Counted from the stretch's first letter, positions 1 to 60,165 are shown. The stretch: DNA of 60,829 bases from Candidatus Magasanikbacteria bacterium RIFCSPLOWO2_12_FULL_43_12 (GCA_001783065.1 MFQN01000011.1:1-60829); one strand, 5' to 3'. Translations and numbers: made by a program. The notes: generated from the letters alone by a model not told the origin.

Positions 1-186
1 CTTTTTGGGATTTAATTGACGACGCCGTCAACGGATACAGGGCCAGTTTAATTAAAACCGTGATAATCAAAATAACCACGCCGACATCGGGAATTAAATT
101 ATACAGACCGACAAAAGCGTTGAACATCGGCTGGGTTAAAACCACTTGAAACAATTCGCGCATAAGTAATAAATAAGAATAGCCAA
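1..186 (-). CDS. yidC: Membrane protein insertase YidC/Oxa1 family, N-terminal part; the gene continues past the window start
   Basis: The minus-strand frame from the ATG at 186 gives MLYFGYSYLLLMRELFQVVLTQPMFNAFVGLYNLIPDVGVVILIITVLIKLALYPLTASSIKSQK with no stop down to position 1. ...ILIITVLIKLALYPLT... matches the conserved YidC hallmark (ILLTILIKLLLYPLT). The ORF-track ORF 99..293 is in a different frame. Confidence 0.6.
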
Positions 187-224
187 AGTATAACATCAAT
201 CCGCCAAAGTATCAATACTTCTCT

Positions 225-272
225 TATCCCTCCCCCTTCAATAGGGGGAGGTGCAGGAGGGGGTCTCGCTCG
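225..272. repeat. GC-rich hairpin element (family-B-like) upstream of yidC
   Basis: ccctccccc-ttcaata-gggggagg, then tgcaggagggggtctcgctcgc. Confidence 0.4.
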
Positions 273-472
273 CAACAAATTAAAAAACACCACCCAAAGT
301 GGCGCCTTTTATGTAGCAGCGAGGAGGAAGCCTCAATACCATTGGTGATGTAAAGGCCCTCTGCCGCTACGGAGATAATATAGCAGATGAGGGCAAAAAT
401 GACAAGAATATGATGTGTGATATAATATAAAAAAAGGTAATATTTAACCGCAAACTTAACAGAAATACTTTT

Positions 473-799
473 ATGAAAATAATAAAGATAAGCGTGCAAG
501 AACCATATTTTAGTTATATTATGTCTGGTGAAAAAACCGTTGAAGGCCGTTTAAACAAAGACAAATTTTTGGAGTTGGAAGTTGGCGACATTTTGGAGAT
601 CAACGGCCAAGCAAATTTTAAAATAATTAAAAAAAATACCTACAAAAATTTTCGAGAGATGATAATGGTAGAAGGTGTAAATAATGTTTTACCTGACAAA
701 AACAATATTGATGAGGCTGTGGATGTCTATTACAGATTTTATAGCAAACAAGACGAAACTGCGTATGGCGTGGTTGGAATAATACTAAAAAAAATATAA
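473..799 (+). CDS. ASCH-domain protein
   Basis: 108 aa. The beta-barrel pattern (IKISVQEPYFSYIMSGEKTVEGR...GDILEI) resembles ASC-1 homology (ASCH) domain proteins. A promoter-like TGACAA/TATAAT pair lies at about 405-435. Confidence 0.55.
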   Translation: MKIIKISVQEPYFSYIMSGEKTVEGRLNKDKFLELEVGDILEINGQANFKIIKKNTYKNFREMIMVEGVNNVLPDKNNIDEAVDVYYRFYSKQDETAYGVVGIILKKI

Positions 800-859
800 C
801 TCGAACACAAAACCTCCAGTTGCTGCATGTATTACTTCACAAAGAACATTTCTGGTGAG

Positions 860-900
860 CAAAAAAAGAAAGACCTCCATCTCGCGATTGAGGTCTTCCT
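860..900 (-). terminator. Terminator downstream of the UvrD-like helicase
   Basis: agacctc-...-gaggtct hairpin followed by a minus-strand T-run (plus-strand gagcaaaaaaagaaag). Confidence 0.5.
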
Positions 901-982
901 TAGGTCTTGAACACTTCCTTACCTATACATCACTGTATATATAGTACCAGAATAGTTGGATCTTGTCAATAGCTTGTATAGA

Positions 983-3157
983 TCAAAGATCATCGACATC
1001 CCGCAAAAAACTCCCGGGCTTAAATTGCCGTTTTGGTTTTTCTTCGTCAATATAAATAATTTCTTCCAGCTCGTTGTCATTAAACACCGCGCCGCGCAGA
1101 TCCGCGTCAACCAAATTTTTATTGATTTCATTGACAAACAAACTTGGTCCGCCGATTGAACCGCCGAAACTTCCAGACATTAAATAACTGATTTGCAGAT
1201 GTTTTTTCGCGCGCGTTACCGCCACGTAAAATAATCGCCGCTCTTCTTCTATTCCATTATCCTCGCGCGCCGCGCGATCATTCGGAAATTGACCATTGGA
1301 AACATTAATAATAAATACTGCCTGCCACTCCAAACCTTTGGCTTGATGAATGGTGGAAAGAACTATCTTGGACTTCAGACTTCTGTCTTCAGTCTTCGGT
1401 TGTCCGTCTGGGGCTGAAGTCTGAAGTCTGAAGTCTGAAGTCTGAAACCCCTCTTGCAAACTTGACTCGGCTAAGAATTGATCTAAATCCTCGGCTTGAT
1501 CCGCGAATTTCGCCAACTGTTCCAAATCCTGCAGCCGCTCCCGATAATCAGGATATTCATTTTCTAAATATTCGGCGTATTTACTTTCCATAATAATCCG
1601 AATCTTACCACCAACGCCAACATCAACCGTGTTTTGCAGAGGCTGAAAAACCTGCAAAAAATCATTCCACCCGACACTGGCTCTCGCCGGTAAATATTCA
1701 ATCATCCGTCCTATGTCATACGTCCTAAGTCTCTCTAAAATCACTTCAATCGTCGCCTCTCCAATCCCCACCTGCATATTTAAAACTCTCTGCCACGCGA
1801 CCGTATCTGTGGAATTATTTAATATCCGCAAATAGGCCAAAACATCTTTGACATGCGCGCGTTCAAAAAACCGCACGCCGCCGCGATAATCATAAGCGAT
1901 GCCGTGTTTTATCAGTTCCATTTCCAGCGCTTGCGAATGATGCGCGGCGCGGAATAAAACCGCGATATCTTTCGGCTCCACCCTCTCGCCAAACAACTCC
2001 TCTACCCGGCTGACGATGGCAACAGCTTCCTCGTCATTGGTATCAAACGAGTGGACTTCCGGCCGAACAAATTTTTCCCGCACGCTCTTCAATTCTTTTT
2101 GGTATTGGTTGATGTTGTTGGAAATTATGTTATTCGCCAAATTCAAAATCTCCGGCGTGGAGCGATAATTGGTTTCCAGACGAAAAATCTTCGCGTCAGG
2201 ATATTCTTTTTCAAAATCCAAAATATTTTTAACCTCCGCCGCGCGGAAACTGTAAATGCTCTGCGCGTCGTCGCCGACAACCAGCAAATTGCGATGTTTG
2301 GCGGCGATCAAACGGATAATTGACGCTTGAATTTTGTTAGTATCCTGATATTCATCAACTAAAATATATTGAAACTGCTCTTGGTATTTTTGCCGAATCT
2401 TTTCCGATTGTTGCAGCAATTTTAACCAATTAACCAACAAATCATCAAAATCCATTACATTCGCGGCTAATTTTCTTTTTTCATAATTCACCGCGATGCT
2501 TTTAATGCTGTCGGCTAACGGCAAAAAATGCTGGTACTTTAGATTCAAAACATCTTCTGTTGTCGTCTCGGAATTCCGCGCGTAGCTGACGATTGACTGC
2601 AAAACCGCCGGCGATGGAAAACGCCGCTGTGTCCGATCCACGCCTTCGTCTTTCAAGCATTGTTTAATTAAATTTGAACTATCATCGCTGTCCAAAACAG
2701 AAAAATTATTTTTATACCCCAAAAACGAACAATACTTTTTTAACACCCGATAGGCAATATGATGAAATGTCCCGGACCACGGCAAAACGGCGAGTTGGCG
2801 AACCACCTCTCTGCCCCGCCACGCCGTGGCATCTCCCCTTGTTAAGGGGAGAGGTTCGATACCCCCCGCCTTAACAAGGAGGGGTGCCCCGATTCGCATC
2901 GGGGCGGGGAGGGGGTTCACAAGCGTGGCCACCCTCTCAATCATCTCTCTCGCCGCTTTATTCGTAAAAGTTACCAACAAAATATTTTCCGGATTAATGC
3001 CTTGCTCCAGCAAATACGCCACGCGGTAAGTGATCGTCCGCGTCTTACCTGACCCAGCGCCAGCCAAAACCAAACACGGCCCGTCGGCATTCCGTACCGC
3101 GTTTAACTGTTCTTGATTTAATTCAGCTTCGTAATTTGGCATAAATAACACTTTCAA
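983..3157 (-). CDS. UvrD/PcrA/Rep-family ATP-dependent DNA helicase; carries two in-frame repeat-derived insertions
   Basis: 724 aa. Walker A AGAGSGKTRTITYRVAYLL; motifs TFTNKAAREM, GTFHH, VDEYQDTN, QAKGLEW and VAVTRAK. Extra segments VNPLPAPMRIGAPLLVKAGGIEPLPLTRGDATAWRGREVV (2812..2930) and QTSDFRLQTSAPDGQPKTEDRSLKSK (1370..1447) map to repeat elements. Confidence 0.85.
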   Translation of the reverse strand: MKVLFMPNYEAELNQEQLNAVRNADGPCLVLAGAGSGKTRTITYRVAYLLEQGINPENILLVTFTNKAAREMIERVATLVNPLPAPMRIGAPLLVKAGGIEPLPLTRGDATAWRGREVVRQLAVLPWSGTFHHIAYRVLKKYCSFLGYKNNFSVLDSDDSSNLIKQCLKDEGVDRTQRRFPSPAVLQSIVSYARNSETTTEDVLNLKYQHFLPLADSIKSIAVNYEKRKLAANVMDFDDLLVNWLKLLQQSEKIRQKYQEQFQYILVDEYQDTNKIQASIIRLIAAKHRNLLVVGDDAQSIYSFRAAEVKNILDFEKEYPDAKIFRLETNYRSTPEILNLANNIISNNINQYQKELKSVREKFVRPEVHSFDTNDEEAVAIVSRVEELFGERVEPKDIAVLFRAAHHSQALEMELIKHGIAYDYRGGVRFFERAHVKDVLAYLRILNNSTDTVAWQRVLNMQVGIGEATIEVILERLRTYDIGRMIEYLPARASVGWNDFLQVFQPLQNTVDVGVGGKIRIIMESKYAEYLENEYPDYRERLQDLEQLAKFADQAEDLDQFLAESSLQEGFQTSDFRLQTSAPDGQPKTEDRSLKSKIVLSTIHQAKGLEWQAVFIINVSNGQFPNDRAAREDNGIEEERRLFYVAVTRAKKHLQISYLMSGSFGGSIGGPSLFVNEINKNLVDADLRGAVFNDNELEEIIYIDEEKPKRQFKPGSFLRDVDDL
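1370..1447. repeat. Family-F heptamer tandem repeats (GAAGTCT)n with an inverted partner, in frame within the helicase gene
   Basis: ggacttcagacttctgtcttcagtcttcgg ... ctgaagtctgaagtctgaagtctgaagtctgaaa. Confidence 0.7.
2812..2930. repeat. Family-B GC-rich multi-hairpin element inserted in frame in the helicase gene
   Basis: Hairpins ctcccc-ttgttaa-ggggag and ccccgat-tcgc-atcgggg. Shares ggggtg(c/t)cccgattcgcatcggg with 44335..44458. Confidence 0.6.
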
Positions 3158-3209
3158 TTTGCTTAAAGCTCTTAATTTGTGGTAGGATTATATCATAAAA
3201 AAATTTAAT

Positions 3210-3833
3210 ATGATAAAAACCGCCATTGATTTCATTCTCCACTTTGACACCTACCTCACCGCGTTGGTAGCGACCTACGGCAGTCTTGTCTATTTATTTC
3301 TGTTTCTGATTATTTTCGTGGAAACCGGATTGGTAATTATGCCATTTCTCCCGGGCGATTCTTTAATATTTATCGCTGGAACTCTCGCCGCGGCCGGCGC
3401 TCTGAACCCATACATCCTATTTATACTGCTCACCGTAGCCGCAATCTTGGGCGACACGGTGAATTATTGGCTCGGACGCTATTTAGGAGAAAAAATCTTC
3501 GATAGATTCATCAACCCCGCGCATATAGAAAAAACAAAATCGTTTTTTACTCGTTATGGTAAAAAAACAATCGTCTTAGCAAGATTTGTCCCGATTGTCA
3601 GGACTTTCGCCCCGTTCGTTGCCGGTATTGGAAAAATGGATTACTTTAGTTTTTTAAGCTACAACATCATCGGCGGAATATTTTGGATTGCCATCTTTGT
3701 TTTTTCCGGTTATTATTTCGGCAATATCCAATTTGTCAAAGATAATCTAACGGCGATTGTTCTTCTGATTATAATTATTTCTATTATTCCAGCGGTGTGG
3801 GAATATATCAAACACAAACGCGCGAGGTTGTGA
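3210..3833 (+). CDS. DedA-family membrane protein
   Basis: 207 aa. DedA signature segments ETGLVIMPFLPGDSLIFIAG and RFVPIVRTFAPFVAGIGKM, with multiple transmembrane helices. Confidence 0.8.
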   Translation: MIKTAIDFILHFDTYLTALVATYGSLVYLFLFLIIFVETGLVIMPFLPGDSLIFIAGTLAAAGALNPYILFILLTVAAILGDTVNYWLGRYLGEKIFDRFINPAHIEKTKSFFTRYGKKTIVLARFVPIVRTFAPFVAGIGKMDYFSFLSYNIIGGIFWIAIFVFSGYYFGNIQFVKDNLTAIVLLIIIISIIPAVWEYIKHKRARL

Positions 3834-3888
3834 CCACGCCGTGGATTGCTTCGCCTGCGAAGGCTCGCAATGACAGAGCTGTCATTCC
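3833..3888. mobile_element. Family-A MITE-like palindromic element, partial copy (right end plus a truncated left-end fragment)
   Basis: gtggattgcttcgcctgcgaaggctcgcaatgacag, then agctgtcattcc. Confidence 0.6.
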
Positions 3889-4685: not shown

Positions 4686-6038
<1,353 letters not shown>

Positions 6039-8021: not shown

Positions 8022-9125
8022 CTACTTGATTAGCATCGCGTCCCCGAAACTATAAAACCGATATTTCTCCTCCACTGCTTTCTGATAAGATTCTAACATA
8101 AACTGTGTGTCGCAAGCAAATGAACTAACTAACATCAAAAGCGTTGACTTCGGCAAGTGAAAATTCGTAATCATCGCGTCAACCACCTTGAATTCAAAGC
8201 CTGGTTTGATAAAGATGTTGATGTCGCCTTTATACGCTCTAACTAAAAATGTATAGCTATTTCCATTTATCTCTACATTATCTCTATCTATTTTATTATT
8301 TAATCCAGCCACTCCCTCAAGTGTTCTCACCGTCGTGGTCCCAATAGCAATAACTCTTCTCCCTTCTTCCTTCGCCAAATTAATCTTCTCCGCGTTTTCT
8401 TCGTCCAGCTCCACCCATTCGCTGTGCATAGTATGATCTTCCACGCGTTCGGATTTAACCGGTAAAAAAGTACCGAGCCCGACATGCAAAGTTATTTCCG
8501 CGAACTCAACGCCTTTGTCCCGCAACTTTTGAATCAACTCCGGCGTAAAATGAAACCCGGCTGTCGGCGCCGCGACCGAACCCTCGTATTTGGCATAAAC
8601 GGTCTGGTAACTCTCTAACTCGTGCGGCTCGTCTTTAATATACGGCGGCACCGGAATGTGGCCGTATTTATTCGCCTTTTCTCTCACTTGCTCTTCTGAA
8701 TCAACAAACTGAACCAAAATCTCACCTGTCGGTTCTTTCACTACCACATCGCAATAAAAATCCGGCGCGAATCTAACTCTCATCCCAGGTTCAACATGTT
8801 TCCCCGGCTTCGCCAATACTTTCCACACTCCCTCGTTTTCCATCGGCCTGATTAAAAATATTTCAATCAATTTTTTGTGTTCAAATAATTCTTGATCGTC
8901 AATCGTGGTTAATTTCCCAAACAATCTGGCCTTAAAAACTTTAGAATTATTCCAAACAATCAAATCGCCTTTTTTAAAAAAATCAATAATATCATAAAAA
9001 TGGCGATGTTCAATCGTTTGGGTTTTTCTATCAACAACCATCAGCCGCGAAGAATCGCGCGGATTTGTTGGTGTTTGCGCGATTAATTCGGAAGGTAAAT
9101 TGTAATCAAAATCTTTGGCTAACAT
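8022..9125 (-). CDS. queA: S-adenosylmethionine:tRNA ribosyltransferase-isomerase
   Basis: 367 aa. N-terminus MLAKDFDYNLPSELIAQTPTNPRDSSRLMVV is typical of QueA, with homology along its length. Confidence 0.9.
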   Translation of the reverse strand: MLAKDFDYNLPSELIAQTPTNPRDSSRLMVVDRKTQTIEHRHFYDIIDFFKKGDLIVWNNSKVFKARLFGKLTTIDDQELFEHKKLIEIFLIRPMENEGVWKVLAKPGKHVEPGMRVRFAPDFYCDVVVKEPTGEILVQFVDSEEQVREKANKYGHIPVPPYIKDEPHELESYQTVYAKYEGSVAAPTAGFHFTPELIQKLRDKGVEFAEITLHVGLGTFLPVKSERVEDHTMHSEWVELDEENAEKINLAKEEGRRVIAIGTTTVRTLEGVAGLNNKIDRDNVEINGNSYTFLVRAYKGDINIFIKPGFEFKVVDAMITNFHLPKSTLLMLVSSFACDTQFMLESYQKAVEEKYRFYSFGDAMLIK

Positions 9126-9128
9126 AAA

Positions 9129-9167
9129 TGCTTACGAGGCTTACGAGGCTGACAAGGCTTACAAAGC
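9129..9167. repeat. Family-E 9-mer tandem array (GGCTTACRA)n directly upstream of the queA start
   Basis: gcttacgag gcttacgag gctgacaag gcttacaaa. Confidence 0.7.
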
Positions 9168-9244
9168 TATTGAACCGATTTAATAAGTTTAAATGTAAGA
9201 TTTAATAGCGTTGTATACAGTTTCACAACTGTTAAACGGCTAAT

Positions 9245-9367
9245 CTGTCATTGCGAGGAGCTCGCGCGATCCCTCACATTCACTCGAGACAGGCTCCGCA
9301 ATCCAGCAATCGCATTAGAACGCGATAACGGTGTGGATTGCTTCGCCTGCGAAGGCTCGCAATGACT
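9245..9367. mobile_element. Family-A MITE-like element, full copy
   Basis: Terminal inverted repeats ctgtcattgcgaggagc ... gctcgcaatgac. Internal gtggattgcttcgcctgcgaaggctc. Confidence 0.7.
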
Positions 9368-9466
9368 TTCAAAAGTGTAAACAACGCTGGCTATTCCTAC
9401 AACTAATTTCACAAACTCTAACGCTTTTTTCCAAACCAACAAATTATGATAATCCTGCATATCGTA

Positions 9467-9510
9467 TTGTCAGCCTTGTAAGCCTAGTAAGCATTGTCAG
9501 CCTAGTACAC
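9467..9510. repeat. Family-E array in inverse orientation (TGTCAGCCTTGTAAGCC...)
   Basis: Forms a long inverted repeat with 9129..9167 around the MITE at 9245..9367. Confidence 0.6.
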
Positions 9511-10590
9511 CTCCACTCTGTTCGCATTATGTTCATCTAGAATTTTCGCGTATTTAACTTCACCCTCCGGGGTGGTCAAAAAGTACCAATAATCATTCTT
9601 TTCCGGATATAACGCGGCTTTGATTGATTCCAAAGACGGATTGCTGATCGGACTTGGCGGCAGGCCCGGATATTTGTAAGTATTCCACGGCGAGTTGCTG
9701 TCGCGATCTTCTTTGGTGGTGAAAACATCTCCGCTTTTATTTACCGCGTAATGCACAGTTGAATCCGCCTGCAATGCCCAGTTTTTATTATACCTCCTCC
9801 ACAAAATATCCGCGGCCAAACGCTTATCTTTTTCCGACTTTACTTCACGCTCCAAAATACTGGCCATAATTAAAATATCATAAAAACTCTTTCCTTGTTT
9901 CCCCATTTCCTGCCGCATCTCATCGGTAATTTCTTGCTCGCGCTGTTGAATTAATTTTAAGACAATATCTTCAAGCTTCGCGTTTTTATAAATCCGATAA
10001 GTTTCCGGCGCCAAATATCCTTCGTAACTCACATACCACGGCTTATCTTCCAAAATTTCCAGATCTGTCCTGAGCGACCCGTCCCGAGATGGACCGAGGG
10101 AAGCCGAAGGATCTGAACTCAACTTTGGCGCGCCTTCTTTCCAATTTTTATAACTCACCGCCGGCAAACCGACCAGCTCGGTCAATTCTTCGGCCTGAAA
10201 CATGCCGTTAAATTCAAAATACTGCGCGATATCGCGGATAGTCCACCCGGGAATAATCGTAATTTCTCTTTCATTCAACCCTGGTCGGGACAAAACATCG
10301 GCCACTCGCGCCAAAGTGATCGGCGCGGCTAATTCAAACTCGCCAAAGTTTATTTTTTTATCAAGTCCTTGCCAAACCAAATATTTTTTAAACAGCCACG
10401 CGCTTCTAATAACTTGTTCAATTTCTAATCGTTCGGCCAGCTCTGTCACGTTCTCGCCGGCTTTAACTTCAAATACAACTTTGCCTGCCCCCACCTGCGC
10501 CTCGGTGGTGTAAATTTCGGAATACAAAAACCAGGCTATGAAGAGTAAACATAGTAGAGTGACAATTAAGAAGATTTTTTTTATGGACAC
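9502..10590 (-). CDS. mltG: Endolytic murein transglycosylase MltG (YceG-like); carries an in-frame 42-nt repeat insertion
   Basis: 362 aa. N-terminal transmembrane helix; motifs IIPGWTIRDIAQ, EDIVLKLIQQ, WNTYKYPGLPPSPISNPSL and YWYFLTT. The repeat at 10067..10110 encodes DPSASLGPSRDGSLRTD. Confidence 0.8.
   Translation of the reverse strand: MSIKKIFLIVTLLCLLFIAWFLYSEIYTTEAQVGAGKVVFEVKAGENVTELAERLEIEQVIRSAWLFKKYLVWQGLDKKINFGEFELAAPITLARVADVLSRPGLNEREITIIPGWTIRDIAQYFEFNGMFQAEELTELVGLPAVSYKNWKEGAPKLSSDPSASLGPSRDGSLRTDLEILEDKPWYVSYEGYLAPETYRIYKNAKLEDIVLKLIQQREQEITDEMRQEMGKQGKSFYDILIMASILEREVKSEKDKRLAADILWRRYNKNWALQADSTVHYAVNKSGDVFTTKEDRDSNSPWNTYKYPGLPPSPISNPSLESIKAALYPEKNDYWYFLTTPEGEVKYAKILDEHNANRVEVY
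10067..10110. repeat. Family-C 42-nt GC-rich element, copy in mltG
   Basis: gtcctgagcgacccgtcccgagatggaccgagggaagccgaagg. 40 of 42 nt identical to the reverse complement of 27016..27058. Confidence 0.7.
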
Positions 10591-20347: not shown

Positions 20348-20351
20348 TTCT

Positions 20352-20451
20352 ACGTCATTGCGAGGAGCTCGCGCTACGAAGCAATCTATACAATCACGAA
20401 AATGCAACGACGGTGTGGATTGCTTCGCCTGCGAAGGCTCGCAATGACAGA
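20352..20451. mobile_element. Family-A MITE-like element
   Basis: gtcattgcgaggagctcgcg...gtggattgcttcgcctgcgaaggctcgcaatgacag. Confidence 0.7.
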
Positions 20452-26536: not shown

Positions 26537-27166
26537 TCACTTCCCCAACCTCCTCAACGCCTCTTTTACTAATTTCCCCGCATCTTTCCCATCCACTGAC
26601 AAACCTTTAACCGCTTCGCGGGCTTCTTCGCGACTGTAACCCAAAGAAACCAGCCCGTCAATCACCTCACCCAACACTTCACTATCGCCATCGCCAAACT
26701 TTATGGACTTTACGGACTTTGTGACTTTTGACTTCAACTCAACAACCACTCGTTCCGCCGTCTTTTTGCCAATGCCGCTGACTTTCGTGAGATAACCAAC
26801 ATCGCCGCGCCCAATCGCCGCGCTGATTTCTTCCAAACTGCCTAATTCCAAAATATGCATGGCGCTTTTTGGCCCAATGCCGCTGACGGTTAACAACAAC
26901 TCAAAAAAACTTTTTTCTTCCAAAGTTTCAAAGCCAAACAAATCCAGCGCGTTCTCCCCCACCCGCAAATAAGTATATAAACTGATACTATCTCCGACTT
27001 GCAAACTTGAACACCCTTCGGCTTCCCTCGGTCCGTCTCGGGACGGGTCGCTCATGGCAGGCTTGCGCACTTTCACACATACCTTATATCCCACCCCTCC
27101 GCTCGTCAATACCAAAACTGACCGCTCGCTTTTTTCTATAATTTTGCCTTTAAGATACGAAATCAT
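26537..27166 (-). CDS. ruvA: Holliday junction branch migration complex subunit RuvA; carries an in-frame 42-nt repeat insertion
   Basis: 209 aa. MISYLKGKI, helix-hairpin-helix LLTVSGIGPKSAMHIL and VSGIGKKTAERVVVELK. The repeat at 27016..27058 encodes MSDPSRDGPREAEG. Confidence 0.85.
   Translation of the reverse strand: MISYLKGKIIEKSERSVLVLTSGGVGYKVCVKVRKPAMSDPSRDGPREAEGCSSLQVGDSISLYTYLRVGENALDLFGFETLEEKSFFELLLTVSGIGPKSAMHILELGSLEEISAAIGRGDVGYLTKVSGIGKKTAERVVVELKSKVTKSVKSIKFGDGDSEVLGEVIDGLVSLGYSREEAREAVKGLSVDGKDAGKLVKEALRRLGK
27016..27058. repeat. Family-C 42-nt GC-rich element, copy in ruvA (opposite orientation relative to the coding strand)
   Basis: ccttcggcttccctcggtccgtctcgggacgggtcgctcatgg. 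Confidence 0.7.
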
Positions 27167-27353: not shown

Positions 27354-28652
27354 TCATAATTCATCACTCTTTTTTTCTTCCTCAACCACCTTCTCTTCCT
27401 GCACCTCTTCCACCACACTCTCCTCTACTTTTTTCTCTTCACTTTTCTCTTCCACTATTTTTTCCACCTCTTTCGGATCAGCGTCACTGCTAACCACTTT
27501 CTCTTCATTCTCATTCTGCACCACATTTAATTTCCAACCGGTCAATTCAGCGGCTAAACGGACATTCTGCCCGCCGCGGCCGATTGCCAAAGAGAATTGA
27601 TCTCCGGCCACATATACTGTCGCCTCTTTACCGCCTTCACCTAAAGAAACGGCGGTAACTTTTGCCGGTGACAAAGCGTGTTTGATATATTCAGCCGCGT
27701 CTTCGCTGAATTGAATCACGTCAATTTTTTCTCCGCCCAATCCTTCAATAATTGTGGTAATTCGGCTGCCGCGCTGGCCGATGCAAGCGCCAATCGGATC
27801 AATGGAATCATCACCGGTCCAAACCGCTACTTTGGAACGATGCCCGGCATCGCGCGCCAAGCCTTTAATTTCCACCGCGCCGGAACTAATTTCCGGAATT
27901 TCTTCGGCGAAAATGGTTTCCACCATTTTCTTGCCGGCGCGAGACAAAACAATTTCCAAACCGCGCTGGCCCATTTCAACTTTTCCTATCAAGAAACGCA
28001 TGCGCGCGCCAGGACGATATTGCTCGCCGTAAATTTGTTCTTCCACCGGCAAAATCGCGGTGGTTTTACCTAAATCAATAATCATCCCGCCGGCGCGATC
28101 GCGGCGTTGAACAATGCCATGGATAATCGTGCCGACTTGATCTTTAAGTTCGTCAAAGACGCTGTTGCGTTCCGCCTCGCGCAGACGCTGAATGACCACT
28201 TGTTTGGCGGTTTGCGCGGCCATGCGGCCAAACTCTCCAGGCACTTCAAGTTTGATTTTTATAATCTCGCCGACTTTGGCTTTCTTAACATGCTCTTTGG
28301 CTTGAGTAACCATTATTTGCGTCTTGGGATTGAAGCGCGCCAAATCAGCCATTTCCTCTTCAGTCAATTCACGATTATCTTTCTGCGCTTCTTCGCGCCG
28401 TTTAGTTAACTCCTCTTGATCCTTAAGTAAAGTTTCTTCATCAACATCTTCCACCACTTCTTTTTCATCCCAAACTTCCATAGCCATGGTTTCCGGATCA
28501 AATTTAACTTTGACATTTTGCTGGCGATTTCCGAAGTCCTTGCGATAAGCCGCGGCCATGGCGGCTTCAACCGCCTCAATTACCGACTCAAAAGTAAGCC
28601 CCTTCTCATCGCAGATGAATTGAATCGCTTTAGTGATTTCCGACATATGCAT
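27354..28652 (-). CDS. nusA: Transcription termination/antitermination factor NusA
   Basis: 432 aa. N-terminal domain, S1, KH domains (ACIGQRGSRI, IEGLGGEKIDVIQFS), acidic C-terminal tail. Confidence 0.9.
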   Translation of the reverse strand: MHMSEITKAIQFICDEKGLTFESVIEAVEAAMAAAYRKDFGNRQQNVKVKFDPETMAMEVWDEKEVVEDVDEETLLKDQEELTKRREEAQKDNRELTEEEMADLARFNPKTQIMVTQAKEHVKKAKVGEIIKIKLEVPGEFGRMAAQTAKQVVIQRLREAERNSVFDELKDQVGTIIHGIVQRRDRAGGMIIDLGKTTAILPVEEQIYGEQYRPGARMRFLIGKVEMGQRGLEIVLSRAGKKMVETIFAEEIPEISSGAVEIKGLARDAGHRSKVAVWTGDDSIDPIGACIGQRGSRITTIIEGLGGEKIDVIQFSEDAAEYIKHALSPAKVTAVSLGEGGKEATVYVAGDQFSLAIGRGGQNVRLAAELTGWKLNVVQNENEEKVVSSDADPKEVEKIVEEKSEEKKVEESVVEEVQEEKVVEEEKKSDEL

Positions 28653-30330: not shown

Positions 30331-30354
30331 AATCAAAAAAGATAAGACTACATA

Positions 30355-30474
30355 CTGTCATTGCGAGGAGCGAGGAACGAGCGACGCGGCAATCCATCGC
30401 CAATTTTTTTCTGAGCTAAGCGCGACTGGATTGCTTCGTCGGCCGACGAACGTCGGCCTCCTCGCAATGACAGA
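30355..30474. mobile_element. Family-A MITE-like element
   Basis: ctgtcattgcgaggagcgaggaacgagcgacgcggcaatcca...cctcctcgcaatgacaga. Confidence 0.7.
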
Positions 30475-30484
30475 CGAAGAATTA

Positions 30485-33188: not shown

Positions 33189-33209
33189 AAAATTTTAGTT
33201 AATTTTTAT

Positions 33210-33348
33210 CTGTCATTGCGAGGAGCTCGCGCGATCCCTCGCATTCACTCGGGACAGGCTCCGCAATCCATCGCCAATTTTTTTCTGAGCTAAGCGCGAC
33301 TGGATTGCTTCGTCGGCCGACGAACATCGGCCTCCTCGCAATGACAGA
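33210..33348. mobile_element. Family-A MITE-like element (longest copy)
   Basis: A composite of modules seen at 9245 and 30355, with perfect terminal inverted repeats ctgtcattgcgaggag / ctcctcgcaatgacag. Confidence 0.7.
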
Positions 33349-33390
33349 TACTCGCTCTAAGTTCTGTAGTGTTTTAATTATATCACAATA

Positions 33391-34764: not shown

Positions 34765-34835
34765 AATCCCTCCCCCTACGAGGTGGAGGGATTGATCTCC
34801 ACCTCGCTATCTCCACCCACCACCTCCACCCAAAT
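34765..34835. repeat. GC-rich hairpin element (family-B-like) at the 3' end of the DUF3048 gene
   Basis: tccctcc-ccctacgag-gtggaggga, then ctccacctcgc. Confidence 0.4.
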
Positions 34836-52657: not shown

Positions 52658-56176
<3,519 letters not shown>

Positions 56177-56329: not shown

Positions 56330-56405
56330 ATTAATAATCAAGCGGCCAAAGGCCGTTTTTAAGTAGACATCGGCAATCAGCTTTCAAACTTCAGCCTTAA
56401 TCGAT

Positions 56406-56434
56406 TGAAGTCCGAAGTCTGATCAACCGAAGTC
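56406..56434. repeat. Family-F repeats directly upstream of the secE ATG
   Basis: tgaagtccgaagtctgatcaaccgaagtc. Confidence 0.6.
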
Positions 56435-56441
56435 AGCATCT

Positions 56442-56633
56442 ATGAACCCCATCACCAAGCTCAAAAACTATTTCAAAGAATCAGTCGCGGAAATGAAAAA
56501 AGTTGTCTGGCCGACGAAAAAACAGACCACGACATATACTTTAATCGTCATCGGCTTGAGTCTCGGCGTTGCCATCTTTTTCGGCATCTTGGATTACGCT
56601 TTCAATCTCGGACTGGAAAAAATTATTAAATAG
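56442..56633 (+). CDS. secE: Preprotein translocase subunit SecE
   Basis: 63 aa with a single C-terminal transmembrane helix. KKVVWPTKKQTT is typical of SecE. It lies directly upstream of nusG. Confidence 0.8.
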   Translation: MNPITKLKNYFKESVAEMKKVVWPTKKQTTTYTLIVIGLSLGVAIFFGILDYAFNLGLEKIIK

Positions 56634-56697
56634 ACTTCGGCTTTCGGACTTCAGACTTCCGACAAGTTGCCGACAATCACAGCTGAAGTCTGAAAGC
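56633..56697. repeat. Family-F inverted repeat pair in the secE-nusG spacer (potential long hairpin)
   Basis: gacttcggctttcggacttcagacttccgac ... gctgaagtctgaaagctg. Confidence 0.6.
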
Positions 56698-56710: not shown

Positions 56711-57256
56711 ATGGCTAAACAAAACCTCCAATTAGGACGCCGCTGGTATGTGCTCCACACCTATAGCGGCTATGAAGAAAACGTCAAACGCAATTTGGAA
56801 CAAAGAATTGAATCTTTTGACATGCGCGACAAAATTTTTGGCGTATTGGTGCCGAAGGAAAAAAAGATTAAAATCAAAAACGGCAAACGCAATGTGATTG
56901 AAGAAAAAGTCTTCCCGGGTTATGTTTTGGTGGAAATGATTGTTACCGATGATTCGTGGTATGTGGTCAGAAACACTCCGAATGTTACCGGCTTCATCGG
57001 TTCCGGCACCACGCCAACCCCGATTGATCAAAAAGAAATAGAAGTTTTACAAAAAAGAATGGGAGTGGATGAACCTACCCACCAGATTGATGTGTCGCTC
57101 AACGAACCGGTGCGCATTATTGACGGCCCGTTCAAAAATTTTGAAGGCAAAATTTCCAATGTTGATGAAGAGCGCGGCAAAGTCAAAGTGCTGGTCAATA
57201 TGTTTGGTCGCGAAACGCCGGTGGAGTTGGACGCGTTGCAAGTGAAGAAAATATAA
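56711..57256 (+). CDS. nusG: Transcription termination/antitermination protein NusG
   Basis: 181 aa. RWYVLHTYSGYEENV (NGN domain). KOW motif in the C-terminal region. Confidence 0.9.
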   Translation: MAKQNLQLGRRWYVLHTYSGYEENVKRNLEQRIESFDMRDKIFGVLVPKEKKIKIKNGKRNVIEEKVFPGYVLVEMIVTDDSWYVVRNTPNVTGFIGSGTTPTPIDQKEIEVLQKRMGVDEPTHQIDVSLNEPVRIIDGPFKNFEGKISNVDEERGKVKVLVNMFGRETPVELDALQVKKI

Positions 57257-57258
57257 AC

Positions 57259-57288
57259 GGACTTCAGCGATCAGACTTCAGACTTCGG
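57259..57288. repeat. Family-F repeats just after nusG
   Basis: ggacttcagcgatcagacttcagacttcgg. Confidence 0.6.
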
Positions 57289-57549: not shown

Positions 57550-57590
57550 CACTTTCGGGCAGAAGTCAGAAGACCGAAGTCTGAAGTCCA
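57550..57590. repeat. Family-F repeats directly upstream of the rplK ATG
   Basis: cgggcagaagtcagaagaccgaagtctgaagtcc. Confidence 0.6.
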
Positions 57591-57596
57591 ATCACT

Positions 57597-58022
57597 ATGG
57601 TCAAAAAATTAATCACCCAAATCAAACTGCAAATTGCCGGCGGAGCGGCTAATCCGGCGCCACCGGTCGGACCGGCTTTGGGCCAGCATGGCGTGAATAT
57701 CCAGGGTTTTTGCAAAGAATTCAATGATAAAACCCAAGACCGCAAAGGAGAAACTGTGCCGGTGATTATTAATGTTTATGAAGACCGCTCTTTCAGCTTC
57801 ATAACCAAAGTTGCTCCGGCCAGCGAACTAATTAAAAAAGCGATCGGTTTGGAAAAAGGAGCGGCTAATCCGCTGAAAGATAAGGTTGGCAAAATCACCA
57901 AAGCCCAACTCATGAAAATCGCGGAAGTGAAAATGAAAGACATGAACACGGAAAATCTTGATTCGGCCGTGCGTTCACTTGCTGGTACGGCCAGACAGAT
58001 GGGAGTGCTGGTGGAAGGGTGA
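57597..58022 (+). CDS. rplK: 50S ribosomal protein L11
   Basis: 141 aa. [26 protein letters not shown]. Confidence 0.95.
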
Positions 58023-59105: not shown

Positions 59106-59996
59106 TTGTTTAAAAATTACAAATTGAAAATTAAAAATTACCAAAGCATTGTGTTCTCTATGAACCAACAAATAAAATTAATCCTCTTACTTACCATTGT
59201 TTTGATAATCGTGGGCGCTGGTTGTTTTACCAAAACTCCAAAAACAACAACTGAAACAGCAACCACGACAGTTGAAATTATAAAAAAGAAACCAAAAATT
59301 GACACTTCGGCTAATCCGGCTCAAAACTATTGTGAAAAAACCGGCAATGAGTTGATTATTCGCTTTGATGAAACCGCTTCAAGCTCAATCGCCTACTGCC
59401 GTTTTGCCGACATGACCGAATGCGAGGTGGAAAAATATTTTAGACAAACCTGCGCGCCCGGACAAAGCGCCGAGCAATACAGCCCGCAAGAAAAAATGGA
59501 CAATTTTGCCACTTGCACCAACGAATACGAACCGGTTTGCGGCGCAAACGGCACAACTTACACCAATACCTGCCTGGCGCAAGTTCAAGGAATAATTATC
59601 ACCCATACCGGCGTCTGCGCTCCGGCAGAACAAAAGCAAACAGCGACTGAAAACAAAAATAGCGCGATAGTAAGTAACAGCGCCCAAACAAAAAAACCAA
59701 CGGCCGCTGTTAGCCAAAGCGCCAACGACCCTTCAGGATGGCTTGGGATAGTTAAAGATTTCGCGCTCTCCGCGCCAAAATCAAACCCGCCGGCATTTAT
59801 TGAAAAATGCGCTTATTCCGGCATTGATTCATACTATTTCTCGCCAGGCTGCGATGGATGCGTTACAACTTTATATGATAAGAACGGTAAAATAGTCTGC
59901 TACCCGAGCAATGATCTGGATAACACTTGTCCCGCGTATTTCACCGGCGCTTATCGCTCAAACTATTGCTCCAAGGTGTGGAAGGACGAAAGATAA
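59106..59996 (+). CDS. Secreted Cys-rich protein with a DUF333 (putative hemolysin-like) domain and a Kazal-type protease-inhibitor domain
   Basis: 296 aa. Signal/transmembrane segment. NPAQNYCEKTGNELIIRFDETASSSIAYCRF (DUF333 pattern). CTNEYEPVCGANGTTYTNTCLAQVQGIIITHTGVC (Kazal). C-terminal Cys-rich module. Confidence 0.55.
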   Translation: MFKNYKLKIKNYQSIVFSMNQQIKLILLLTIVLIIVGAGCFTKTPKTTTETATTTVEIIKKKPKIDTSANPAQNYCEKTGNELIIRFDETASSSIAYCRFADMTECEVEKYFRQTCAPGQSAEQYSPQEKMDNFATCTNEYEPVCGANGTTYTNTCLAQVQGIIITHTGVCAPAEQKQTATENKNSAIVSNSAQTKKPTAAVSQSANDPSGWLGIVKDFALSAPKSNPPAFIEKCAYSGIDSYYFSPGCDGCVTTLYDKNGKIVCYPSNDLDNTCPAYFTGAYRSNYCSKVWKDER

Positions 59997-60035
59997 GGCT
60001 TACGAGGCCGACAAGGCTTACAAAGCCCACAAGGT
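59996..60035. repeat. Family-E array, left arm flanking the rplA promoter
   Basis: aaggcttacg aggccgaca aggcttaca aagcccaca agg. Confidence 0.6.
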
Positions 60036-60067: not shown

Positions 60068-60124
60068 AAGGGTACTTTTAGTAACCGGTGGGACCTCTGC
60101 CATCCAGGGGGTTAGAACCACCAA

Positions 60125-60165
60125 TCTTACGAAGCCTTGTAAGCATTGCACGCCTCGTAAGCCTT
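60125..60165. repeat. Family-E array, right arm (inverse orientation), ending 8 nt before the rplA ATG
   Basis: tcttacgaagccttgtaagcattgcacgcctcgtaagcc. Confidence 0.6.

Follow-up and report, generated by a model that had tools for sequence, protein, structure and literature searches.

The contig MFQN01000011.1 of Candidatus Magasanikbacteria bacterium RIFCSPLOWO2_12_FULL_43_12 (GCA_001783065.1), analyzed here over positions 1 to 60,829 (hereafter the window, 60,829 nt), carries on its minus strand a UvrD/PcrA-type helicase gene (983..3157) with a GC-rich palindromic element inside its coding sequence. We call the family to which this element belongs family B and the full copy in the helicase gene copy 1 (2798..2920, minus strand). 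Copy 1 spans 123 nt, i.e., 41 codons, and corresponds to residues V80-R120 of the helicase. Its GC content is 67%, against 43.7% for the window. A first-pass annotation, made from the sequence alone, had placed a string of hairpins at 2812..2930. The element is real and its hairpins are where that annotation put them, but the span was offset and the best limits are those given above.

The host gene is an uninterrupted open reading frame (ORF) of 724 amino acids, with the insert in frame as initially proposed. Its closest relatives are proteins that their sources name ATP-dependent helicases of Candidatus Magasanikbacteria (Patescibacteria, or candidate phyla radiation, CPR), and orthologous contigs have the same neighbors around it, i.e., tgt, a C39-like peptidase, and a VTT-domain protein. 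The protein matches PcrA (1pjr; phmmer E = 3.6e-105) and also UvrD. The alignment with PcrA is split in two blocks, query residues 11-81 and 126-686, which cover motifs I to VI and leave query residues 82-125 opposite PcrA 82-86, a 5-residue loop at the end of the first 1A segment, in line with the place that the first-pass annotation had expected. This is the sole stretch that does not align with PcrA, and the match breaks exactly where the element had been located, between TFTNKAAREM and GTFHH. Copy 1 lies between the helicase motifs Ia and Ib. An AlphaFold2 model of the helicase built with 38 sequences (predicted template modeling score 0.71) has a predicted local distance difference test score (pLDDT) below 50 at residues 86-121, with a mean of about 33-37. 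The other parts of low confidence are residues 570-595 (pLDDT also below 50), a short stretch at 300-309, and the termini; the remainder is confident.

We then compared the loop among orthologues of the helicase (P0002..P0120), of which 109 have both the TFTNKAA and the GTFH motifs. The spacer between these motifs is exactly 20 residues long in 75 of the 109, compared with 59 residues in the window. The syntenic orthologue of contig L011 lacks the insert and passes from ..IERVQ straight to IKLPWSGTFHH. Hence, the segment is an insertion, as had been claimed. The loop is lengthened at this exact place in 33 of the 109 orthologues, mostly by peptides resembling translated GC hairpins, which provides a natural map of the tolerance of UvrD/PcrA to insertions between motifs Ia and Ib. 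Besides family B, at least three unrelated kinds of hairpin occur there (..TPxPSPxxGEG..; ..VETQNFASL.. / ..RDALQCVF..; ..RQGYGGQG..), and, judging from these peptides, several hairpin families seem to have reached the same permissive loop. Similar lineage-specific inserts, e.g., ..PRLSGGQAG.. and ..HPNPLLQGEGN.., are found in other loops of the orthologous helicases. A scan for GC-rich islands, intended to count intragenic repeats, was abandoned as too noisy at 44% GC.

The 90% identity cluster of the helicase, drawn from NCBI, ENA, and JGI assemblies, has 9 full-length members, all with the same insert apart from the change P82H. This change reflects the right terminus of the element, which in most strains reads GAGGTGGTTCAC and gives VNH, not VNP. 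The other 2 members of the cluster are truncated proteins that start inside the insert or at its end. The insert is present throughout the species as sampled, i.e., in every assembly examined. Since the ORF is intact, aligns over motifs I to VI with both PcrA and UvrD, and carries the insert in all 9 full-length members, the helicase is not a frameshifted pseudogene, in agreement with the first-pass annotation, and the insert is not an assembly artefact. One further metagenome contig from the same organism, L018, is 100% identical to window positions 1..2908 and ends inside copy 1, as assemblies tend to do at repeats. Another, L015, might have passed for a near-identical empty or alternative allele but was not used. 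It agrees fully with the window over the 386 nt that precede the insertion point, but beyond it the identity falls to 89%, and it is therefore probably a chimeric contig joined at the repeat (ENA NODE_36449, coverage 1.6).

Anatomy and fold of family B

Full elements of family B are 114-130 nt long and have 12-nt inverted termini (GYGAACCACCTC / GAGGTGGTTCRC) that enclose four or five short hairpin modules. The termini pair with each other in the consensus fold (helix 1), as do those of miniature inverted-repeat transposable elements, and the size, inverted termini, and stem-loops are those of a repeat akin to the Rickettsia palindromic elements (RPE). Read on the plus strand, copy 1 starts with the left terminal repeat GCGAACCACCTC (2798..2809) and ends with the right one, GAGGGGGTTCAC (2909..2920), with which it pairs. 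The minus strand translates as VNPLPAPMRIGAPLLVKAGGIEPLPLTRGDATAWRGREVVR. Inside the element lie hairpin H2 (2832..2852, TCTCCCCT-TGTTA-AGGGGAGA), where 4 of the 9 pairs change on both sides among the four full copies that we found, hairpin H4 (2864..2884, CCCCGCCTT-AAC-AAGGAGGGG), which has a C-rich and a G-rich arm and is variable, and hairpin H5 (2886..2905, GCCCCGAT-TCGC-ATCGGGGC), an invariant core module preceded by TG. The two halves of the element differ and are not two copies of one unit. H5 is present on one side only, and the whole is an imperfect palindrome.

The predicted fold of copy 1 is very stable on both strands: -77.8 kcal/mol on the plus strand (z = -6.8, with none of 200 shuffles as good) and -76.9 kcal/mol on the minus, or sense, strand (z = -5.7). 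The sequence can fold as one long, imperfect hairpin, but also as several local hairpins in a row. The consensus fold of the four full copies comprises 44 pairs, with 94% of the cells paired. Changes on both sides of a pair number 11, compared with 3.6 ± 1.5 in shuffles and 0-3 when the partners are slid. As it concerns four related sequences, this covariation is supportive rather than conclusive. The wobble pairs of family B favor the plus strand, and a heptamer hairpin of the window (see below) also folds better on that strand. However, the other repeat families of the window have no consistent bias, and we draw no conclusion on the folding strand from G-T wobble asymmetry.

Part of the element behaves as a unit of its own. 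This conserved two-hairpin unit consists of the variable C/G hairpin, TG, and YCCCGAT-TCGC-ATCGGGR, and it recurs with other hairpins in other genomes; a family-B element is a mosaic of short hairpins. H5 and the TG in front of it do not vary among the 12 distinct copies of the unit, whatever the mosaic; the closing pair is either C-G or T-A. This invariance arises partly by construction, since H5 was covered by the exact pattern used to retrieve the copies. H4 forms a stem of 6-9 bp in all 12 copies, in 10 different sequences, and the C-rich arm is always 5' and the G-rich arm 3'. Since the stem of H4 is kept with varied sequence while H5 is identical, the pairing is maintained in both and H5 is also kept at the level of the sequence.

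Copies in the window and in other genomes

The second full copy in the window, copy 2 (44333..44456, minus strand, 124 nt), had been recognized beforehand as a homologous element at 44335..44458. Pairwise alignment with copy 1 gave 78% identity over the aligned length, and the two copies share a 28-nt block in which 27 of the 28 positions agree (blastn-short E = 2.4e-8 within the window). The search for the family core that had been advised finds this 16-mer exactly at two sites of the window. When up to 3 mismatches are allowed, there are 5 matches, against 0.59 expected. Copy 2 folds with -83 kcal/mol (z = -8.0), and its H5 reads TCCCGAT-TCGC-ATCGGGA (44423..44440).

Copy 2 precedes the gene of a large surface protein with an LTD domain (40482..44276, minus strand, 1264 aa from the publicly called start). 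Since copy 2 is free of stops in the relevant frame, an ORF of 1331 aa that begins at the upstream TTG 44477 passes through it. Public records hold no product of 1331 aa, nor one of 1273 aa (from ATG 44303), but they do hold the one of 1264 aa from TTG 44276, a start that is preceded by AAGGAGG. Given this start and the upstream stop at 44464, copy 2 lies in a 187-nt spacer and is intergenic, and the N-terminal extension is spurious, as the first-pass annotation had concluded. That annotation had also read copy 2 in the same frame as copy 1. The one consistently open frame of the family happens to be in phase with the downstream gene, which is no evidence that copy 2 is translated. In 44100..44700 a single terminator-like site was called, at 44243..44217, and none for copy 2. 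No orthologous spacer was found that could serve as an empty site, as no homologue of the large surface protein exceeds 53% identity. Several distant homologues of the N-terminal region of this protein carry the Pfam family PF00882, zinc-dependent phospholipase C. Just upstream of the operon containing copy 2 there is a likely toxin-antitoxin pair (45087..46212, minus strand), made of a 261-aa protein found in public records, with HTH_3 (faint) and SocA_Panacea domains, and a 118-aa partner.

The window also contains two short forms of family B. The one at 229..272 (45 nt) consists of one C/G hairpin, TG, and a tail resembling the terminal repeat. The one at 42898..42934 (minus strand) consists of CCCCTCT-CGG-AGAGGGG and the tail CAGGGGGTGTGTTCGC, and is in frame in the large surface protein (..TPPAPLREGS..). 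These two had been listed as degenerate relatives at 225..272 and 42895..42930; a third such region, 34765..34835, is only weakly similar to family B (nhmmer E = 0.13).

To search beyond the window, we scanned the genome and metagenome collections once each with the family-B core pattern. A full copy was found in the metagenome contig L017. It lies inside the gene of an NAD-dependent DNA ligase and has the orientation and frame of copy 1 (..GGKVIDHLSAPMRIGAPPLVKGKGRQAPLLDKEGNTGEVVRSVAFFC..). The ligase has 47 residues in place of residues 418-424 of the E. coli LigA, a stretch of the zinc finger that separates its two cysteine pairs. The inner part of this copy appears inverted relative to the other copies. 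The fourth full copy is intergenic and lies in the metagenome contig L031. The intragenic copies have lengths divisible by 3 (123 and 114 nt), whereas the two intergenic ones are 124 and 130 nt long. Family B is a dispersed repeat: the 60 kb contain two full copies along with two short forms, and related contigs have copies in the ligase gene and at an intergenic site.

The sub-unit made of the C/G hairpin, TG, and YCCCGATTCGCATCGGGR was found within different mosaics at three loci of Magasanikbacteria GW2011_GWC2_37_14 and in several metagenome contigs. It also lies beside housekeeping genes in two contigs of around 50% GC from metagenome-assembled genomes labeled uncultured Gammaproteobacteria (L006 2929..2975; L007 693..735 and 1396..1425); either the unit crosses phyla or these contigs were mis-binned. 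In L034, a gene of the DUF559 family (Vsr-like endonuclease fold, 3049..3579) is directly downstream of one such unit. As this is the sole nuclease-like neighbor among ten loci, it is probably a coincidence. Core matches in GC-rich genomes (L001, L005, L008-L010, L019-L021, L025, L026, L028-L030) were put down to chance, as they have no flanking hairpins. The viral, plasmid, and phage collections gave no copy of family B.

At the protein level, an exhaustive profile search of 1.84 billion representative proteins with the family peptide gave three real matches, i.e., two small ORFs and a 129-aa protein, with the element in the same frame as in the helicase; the rest were of low complexity. Few called proteins thus contain the peptide. 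The cases of the helicase and ligase were probably missed because insert-free proteins represent their clusters or, for the ligase, because the gene is cut by the contig end. A word-indexed protein search with the 41-residue peptide returned 3 candidates and 1 match, its index being ill-suited to such a short query. No frame other than that of the helicase is open in each of the four full copies, where 11 of the 24 frames are open overall. By our estimate, a frame of this length at 65% GC is open by chance with a probability of about 0.37. Since 11 of 24 is close to this expectation, we dropped frame openness as evidence of selection. Only the reuse of one frame in two genes carries weight, with n = 2.

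Comparisons between related loci revealed that a given site may be occupied by elements of different length. Positions 76..215 of the window, directly before the short form at 229..272, match L031 at 85% identity, and it is there that L031 has its full copy. In the helicase loops of L013 and L016 a single hairpin follows the initial terminal repeat known from copy 1, GTGA(A/C)CCACCTCACCCC, in the same orientation. In L016 an extra hairpin is nested within the loop of the first one. In view of the short forms at this helicase loop and at 229..272, long and short forms alternate at fixed sites. The helicase loop of L015 has an altogether different hairpin.

Origin of the insert and relation to known repeats

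We consider it likely that the inserted segment is a copy of a small non-autonomous GC-rich palindromic repeat, comparable to RPE, to pairs of repetitive extragenic palindromes (REP) known as REPIN, and to bacterial interspersed mosaic elements (BIME), and that it has been kept in frame in a permissive loop. The loop is permissive in that the helicase ORF is intact with the insert opposite PcrA 82-86, just as the insert in LigA replaces a short stretch. Under this explanation, family B would populate the genomes of this Magasanikbacteria lineage as a non-coding element, whose copies would have spread between loci by a mechanism recognizing DNA hairpins. The candidates are a hairpin-specific single-strand transposase, of the type of the REP-associated tyrosine transposases (RAYT) or of IS200-IS605, and recombination or gene conversion between copies. 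Both transposition of this kind and gene conversion among copies are compatible with the data. Long and short forms would be swapped at fixed sites. A copy landing in a gene would survive only if the frame is kept, no stop is introduced, and the loop tolerates extra residues. Copy 1 keeps the frame, has no stop, and lies in such a loop, and would be transcribed and translated with the helicase, to which it would add a disordered surface loop of 41 residues, with much Pro, Gly, Leu, and Arg, in place of the short loop that joins motifs Ia and Ib. Most likely, such an insert is no functional domain and is carried along as baggage, neutral or slightly deleterious.

The element is of a known kind, since RPEs and intragenic REPs already show the principle; the sequence family is new. 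The RPEs described by Ogata et al. 2000 (via PMC2229807, PMC10969869) are 105-146 bp long, in the size class of family B, and share with it 12-bp terminal inverted repeats, a predicted long stem-loop, hosts with small genomes, and a dispersed distribution, intergenic and intragenic, where the open frame is fused into conserved housekeeping genes without destroying them. An RPE-containing guanylate kinase has been shown to be made and to be active (PMC2229807). However, family B is found in an unrelated phylum and is likened to RPEs by its anatomy, not by its sequence, so that we do not class it as an RPE proper. It is GC-rich within a genome of 44% GC, and it is visibly modular, with units shared with other mosaics and long and short forms alternating at one site. 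Furthermore, we found only two or three in-frame cases of family B in very large protein collections, compared with dozens of RPEs in a single Rickettsia genome.

The REP and REPIN-RAYT systems (PMC3733652, PMC3116915, PMC3337134) resemble family B in being built from short GC-rich stem-loops that stand alone or, less clearly so in family B, form inverted pairs folding into a larger hairpin, and in occurring mostly in short spacers beside genes. Other bacteria have already been described with palindromic repeats read in frame within genes of replication and repair, UvrD among them (PMC3733652, PMC2229807). Intragenic REPs cluster in such genes, UvrD/Rep helicases included (PMC3733652), and the occasional intragenic copies in the helicase and ligase extend this bias. 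In contrast with REPs, neither end of the family-B unit has a conserved GTAG/CGTC tag; in the 12 distinct copies GGTG precedes H5 and a variable base follows it. The absence of the tag places family B outside the GTAG/CGTC superfamilies. Moreover, neither a RAYT nor any other transposase was found near family B, in the window or at ten other loci. Like BIMEs, family B is a mosaic of a few palindromic unit types and other short motifs whose arrangement varies by locus. Yet, BIMEs are extragenic and specific to enterobacteria, are made of unrelated units (the Y, Z1, and Z2 REPs), and are not known as in-frame protein inserts. The GC clusters and double-hairpin elements of fungal mitochondria are also GC-rich hairpin modules that spread in an AT-richer genome and occasionally enter variable loops of coding or rRNA genes. 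They differ in being organellar and much shorter, and in some yeasts they are bypassed rather than translated. The distinctive features of family B are the modular kit, the invariant hairpin, and the heavily used helicase loop. A full-text literature search returned no report of such palindromic elements in Patescibacteria/CPR.

Several observations weigh against this explanation. No transposase or other mobilizing gene, Y1_Tnp included, was found among the 40 ORFs of the window, and no transposase domain among the 20 ORFs flanking the ten other loci bearing the unit. None of the four full copies has a target-site duplication (flanks TTG/AAG, ATTT/CCCA, CTGA/CTTG, and GAT/TCG, with boundaries uncertain by a few bases). 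We infer mobility from the distribution of the copies alone, since no closely related pair of filled and empty sites was found. The translation of the insert is presumed, with indirect support from its open frame, from lengths in multiples of 3, and from its presence in all 9 full-length proteins of the cluster. The exact conservation of H5 across distant genomes exceeds what is expected of junk and hints at a recognized site. Finally, at two loci the long form of one genome corresponds to a short form at the same place in a relative, and this fits remodeling in situ as well as, or better than, repeated transposition.

The conservation of H5 would be accounted for if the element were mainly a functional nucleic-acid structure rather than selfish DNA, either a signal in the transcribed RNA (for mRNA stability, processing, pausing, or protein binding) or a site in the DNA, with H5 as the recognized part and the in-frame copies as by-products. 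We find this unlikely. It is true that the pairing co-varies in H2, the central hairpin, and H4, that H5 with its loop and the preceding TG is identical in 12 distinct copies from various genomes and mosaics, and that its loop reads GCGA on the sense strand of both window copies, which fits a GNRA tetraloop. Most copies also lie in short spacers beside housekeeping genes, the usual place of REPs acting as post-transcriptional elements (PMC3733652). However, the unit is found in both orientations, co-directional with the upstream gene in L002 and antisense in the window, and copy 2 has no called terminator-like site. Rfam gave no match for the whole window at gathering score and, for the two copies, only chance-level matches at E up to 10. 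The covariation of a palindrome may also result from the need for a DNA hairpin in transposition or from conversion between its arms, and a cis-regulatory role common to the helicase and ligase copies and to the intergenic ones is implausible.

The alternation of forms could instead reflect local, hairpin-driven remodeling of one old locus, with no mobile copies at all: a short GC hairpin, gained once by an ancestor, would have been enlarged, shortened, or overwritten on the spot by template switching, by slippage between similar modules, or by gene conversion from other hairpins. In the sister species L013 and L016 the helicase loop contains short forms whose left boundary and orientation are those of copy 1, with a nested hairpin in L016, the window has a short form at 225..272 where L031 has a long one, the inner part of the ligase copy looks inverted, and target-site duplications were not seen. 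As a replacement for the spread of a repeat, this is nevertheless quite improbable: near-identical elements of 120 nt at the unlinked positions 2798 and 44333, and in LigA, require copying between loci, and at least three unrelated hairpin families in the same helicase loop imply several independent arrivals. Remodeling works better as a complement, acting after the arrival of the element. We give very little credence to a removal or skipping of the segment during expression, by intron-like excision, as an intein, or by translational bypass, as known from T4 gene 60 and from the GC-rich 'byp' elements of yeast mitochondria, that would leave the mature helicase without it. The sense-strand structure is indeed GC-rich and very stable (-77 kcal/mol) and stands between conserved motifs of an otherwise AT-richer gene, and the peptide is predicted to be disordered and is not conserved in orthologues. 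Yet, if the segment were skipped, there would be no need for an open frame, for the same orientation and frame in helicase and ligase, or for lengths in multiples of 3, which the intergenic copies do not have. No intron or ribozyme of Rfam was matched, and 41 residues are far too short for an intein. The window has a true intein in gyrB that was detected, showing that detection works. In known bypass elements, gene 60 being the documented case, a stop codon follows the take-off codon, and here there is none. None of these alternatives accounts better than an in-frame palindromic repeat for the whole picture.

One may go further and suppose that Magasanikbacteria, and perhaps other lineages, share a kit of GC-rich hairpin modules in which TG with YCCCGAT-TCGC-ATCGGGR is the recognition site of a hairpin-specific enzyme. 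This enzyme would assemble, exchange, and resize mosaics at set places, among them the same surface loops of enzymes essential for replication and repair. This is a tentative proposal that we regard as possible but doubtful. If true, the turnover of hairpin repeats would be a major, previously undescribed source of variation in protein loops of CPR bacteria; around 30% of the orthologues of a single helicase have some lengthened version of one loop. The invariant H5 hairpin could serve as bait for finding the enzyme that moves the elements. Whatever the mechanism, stop-free GC-rich repeats matter for annotation: they lengthen ORFs in CPR genomes (1331 aa vs the public 1264 aa for the large surface protein), add spurious domains to essential proteins, and break assemblies. 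CPR genomes are very small, yet this window alone bears several repeat families, and selfish repeats kept in frame are not peculiar to Rickettsia.

Other repeats and inserts in the window

The 60-kb window contains at least four families of palindromic repeats, several of them within genes. The helicase itself has a second in-frame insert derived from a repeat, as had been noticed. It is an inverted array of the GAAGTCT heptamer (1365..1447, minus strand), which belongs to another family, translates as ..DFRLQTSAPDGQPKTEDRSLK.., and corresponds to the low-confidence residues 570-595 of the AlphaFold2 model. Similar arrays of GAAGTCY, some of them inverted and forming hairpins, lie at 52809..52854, 55925..55970, 56360..56420, 56627..56690, 57254..57286, and 57557..57602.

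A separate palindromic family, GTCATTGCGAGGAGC ... GGATTGCTTCG ... CTCGCAATGAC, has elements of 100-145 nt with folds of -33 to -72 kcal/mol, at 3815..3874, 5700..5790, 9240..9370, 20350..20450, 30350..30480, and 33205..33350. The copy at 5700..5790 is in frame in the queuine tRNA-ribosyltransferase gene tgt (4728..6038, plus strand), whose product is longer in the window (436 aa) than in orthologous contigs (417 and 408 aa). Arrays of a 9-nt unit (GCTTACAAG / CTTGTAAGC) were found at 9118..9173, 9456..9509, 39358..39442, 52661..52714, 59986..60032, and 60117..60170. The one at 39358..39442 forms a near-perfect hairpin of around 23 pairs (-41 kcal/mol) where the genes 38257..39432 and 39433..40455 abut.

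The gene of DNA gyrase B (52718..56176, plus strand) encodes 1152 aa with an Intein_splicing match at residues 500-919, between the central domain and Toprim, and is intein-containing. In four other genes the Pfam match is longer than the profile: NusA_N in nusA (27354..28652; residues 5-163 vs a profile of 119), Queuosine_synth in queA (8022..9125; 4-366 vs 322), YceG in yceG (9502..10590; 40-358 vs 275), and RuvA_N in ruvA (26537..27166; 1-78 vs 61). These over-long matches suggest more lineage-specific inserts in housekeeping proteins.

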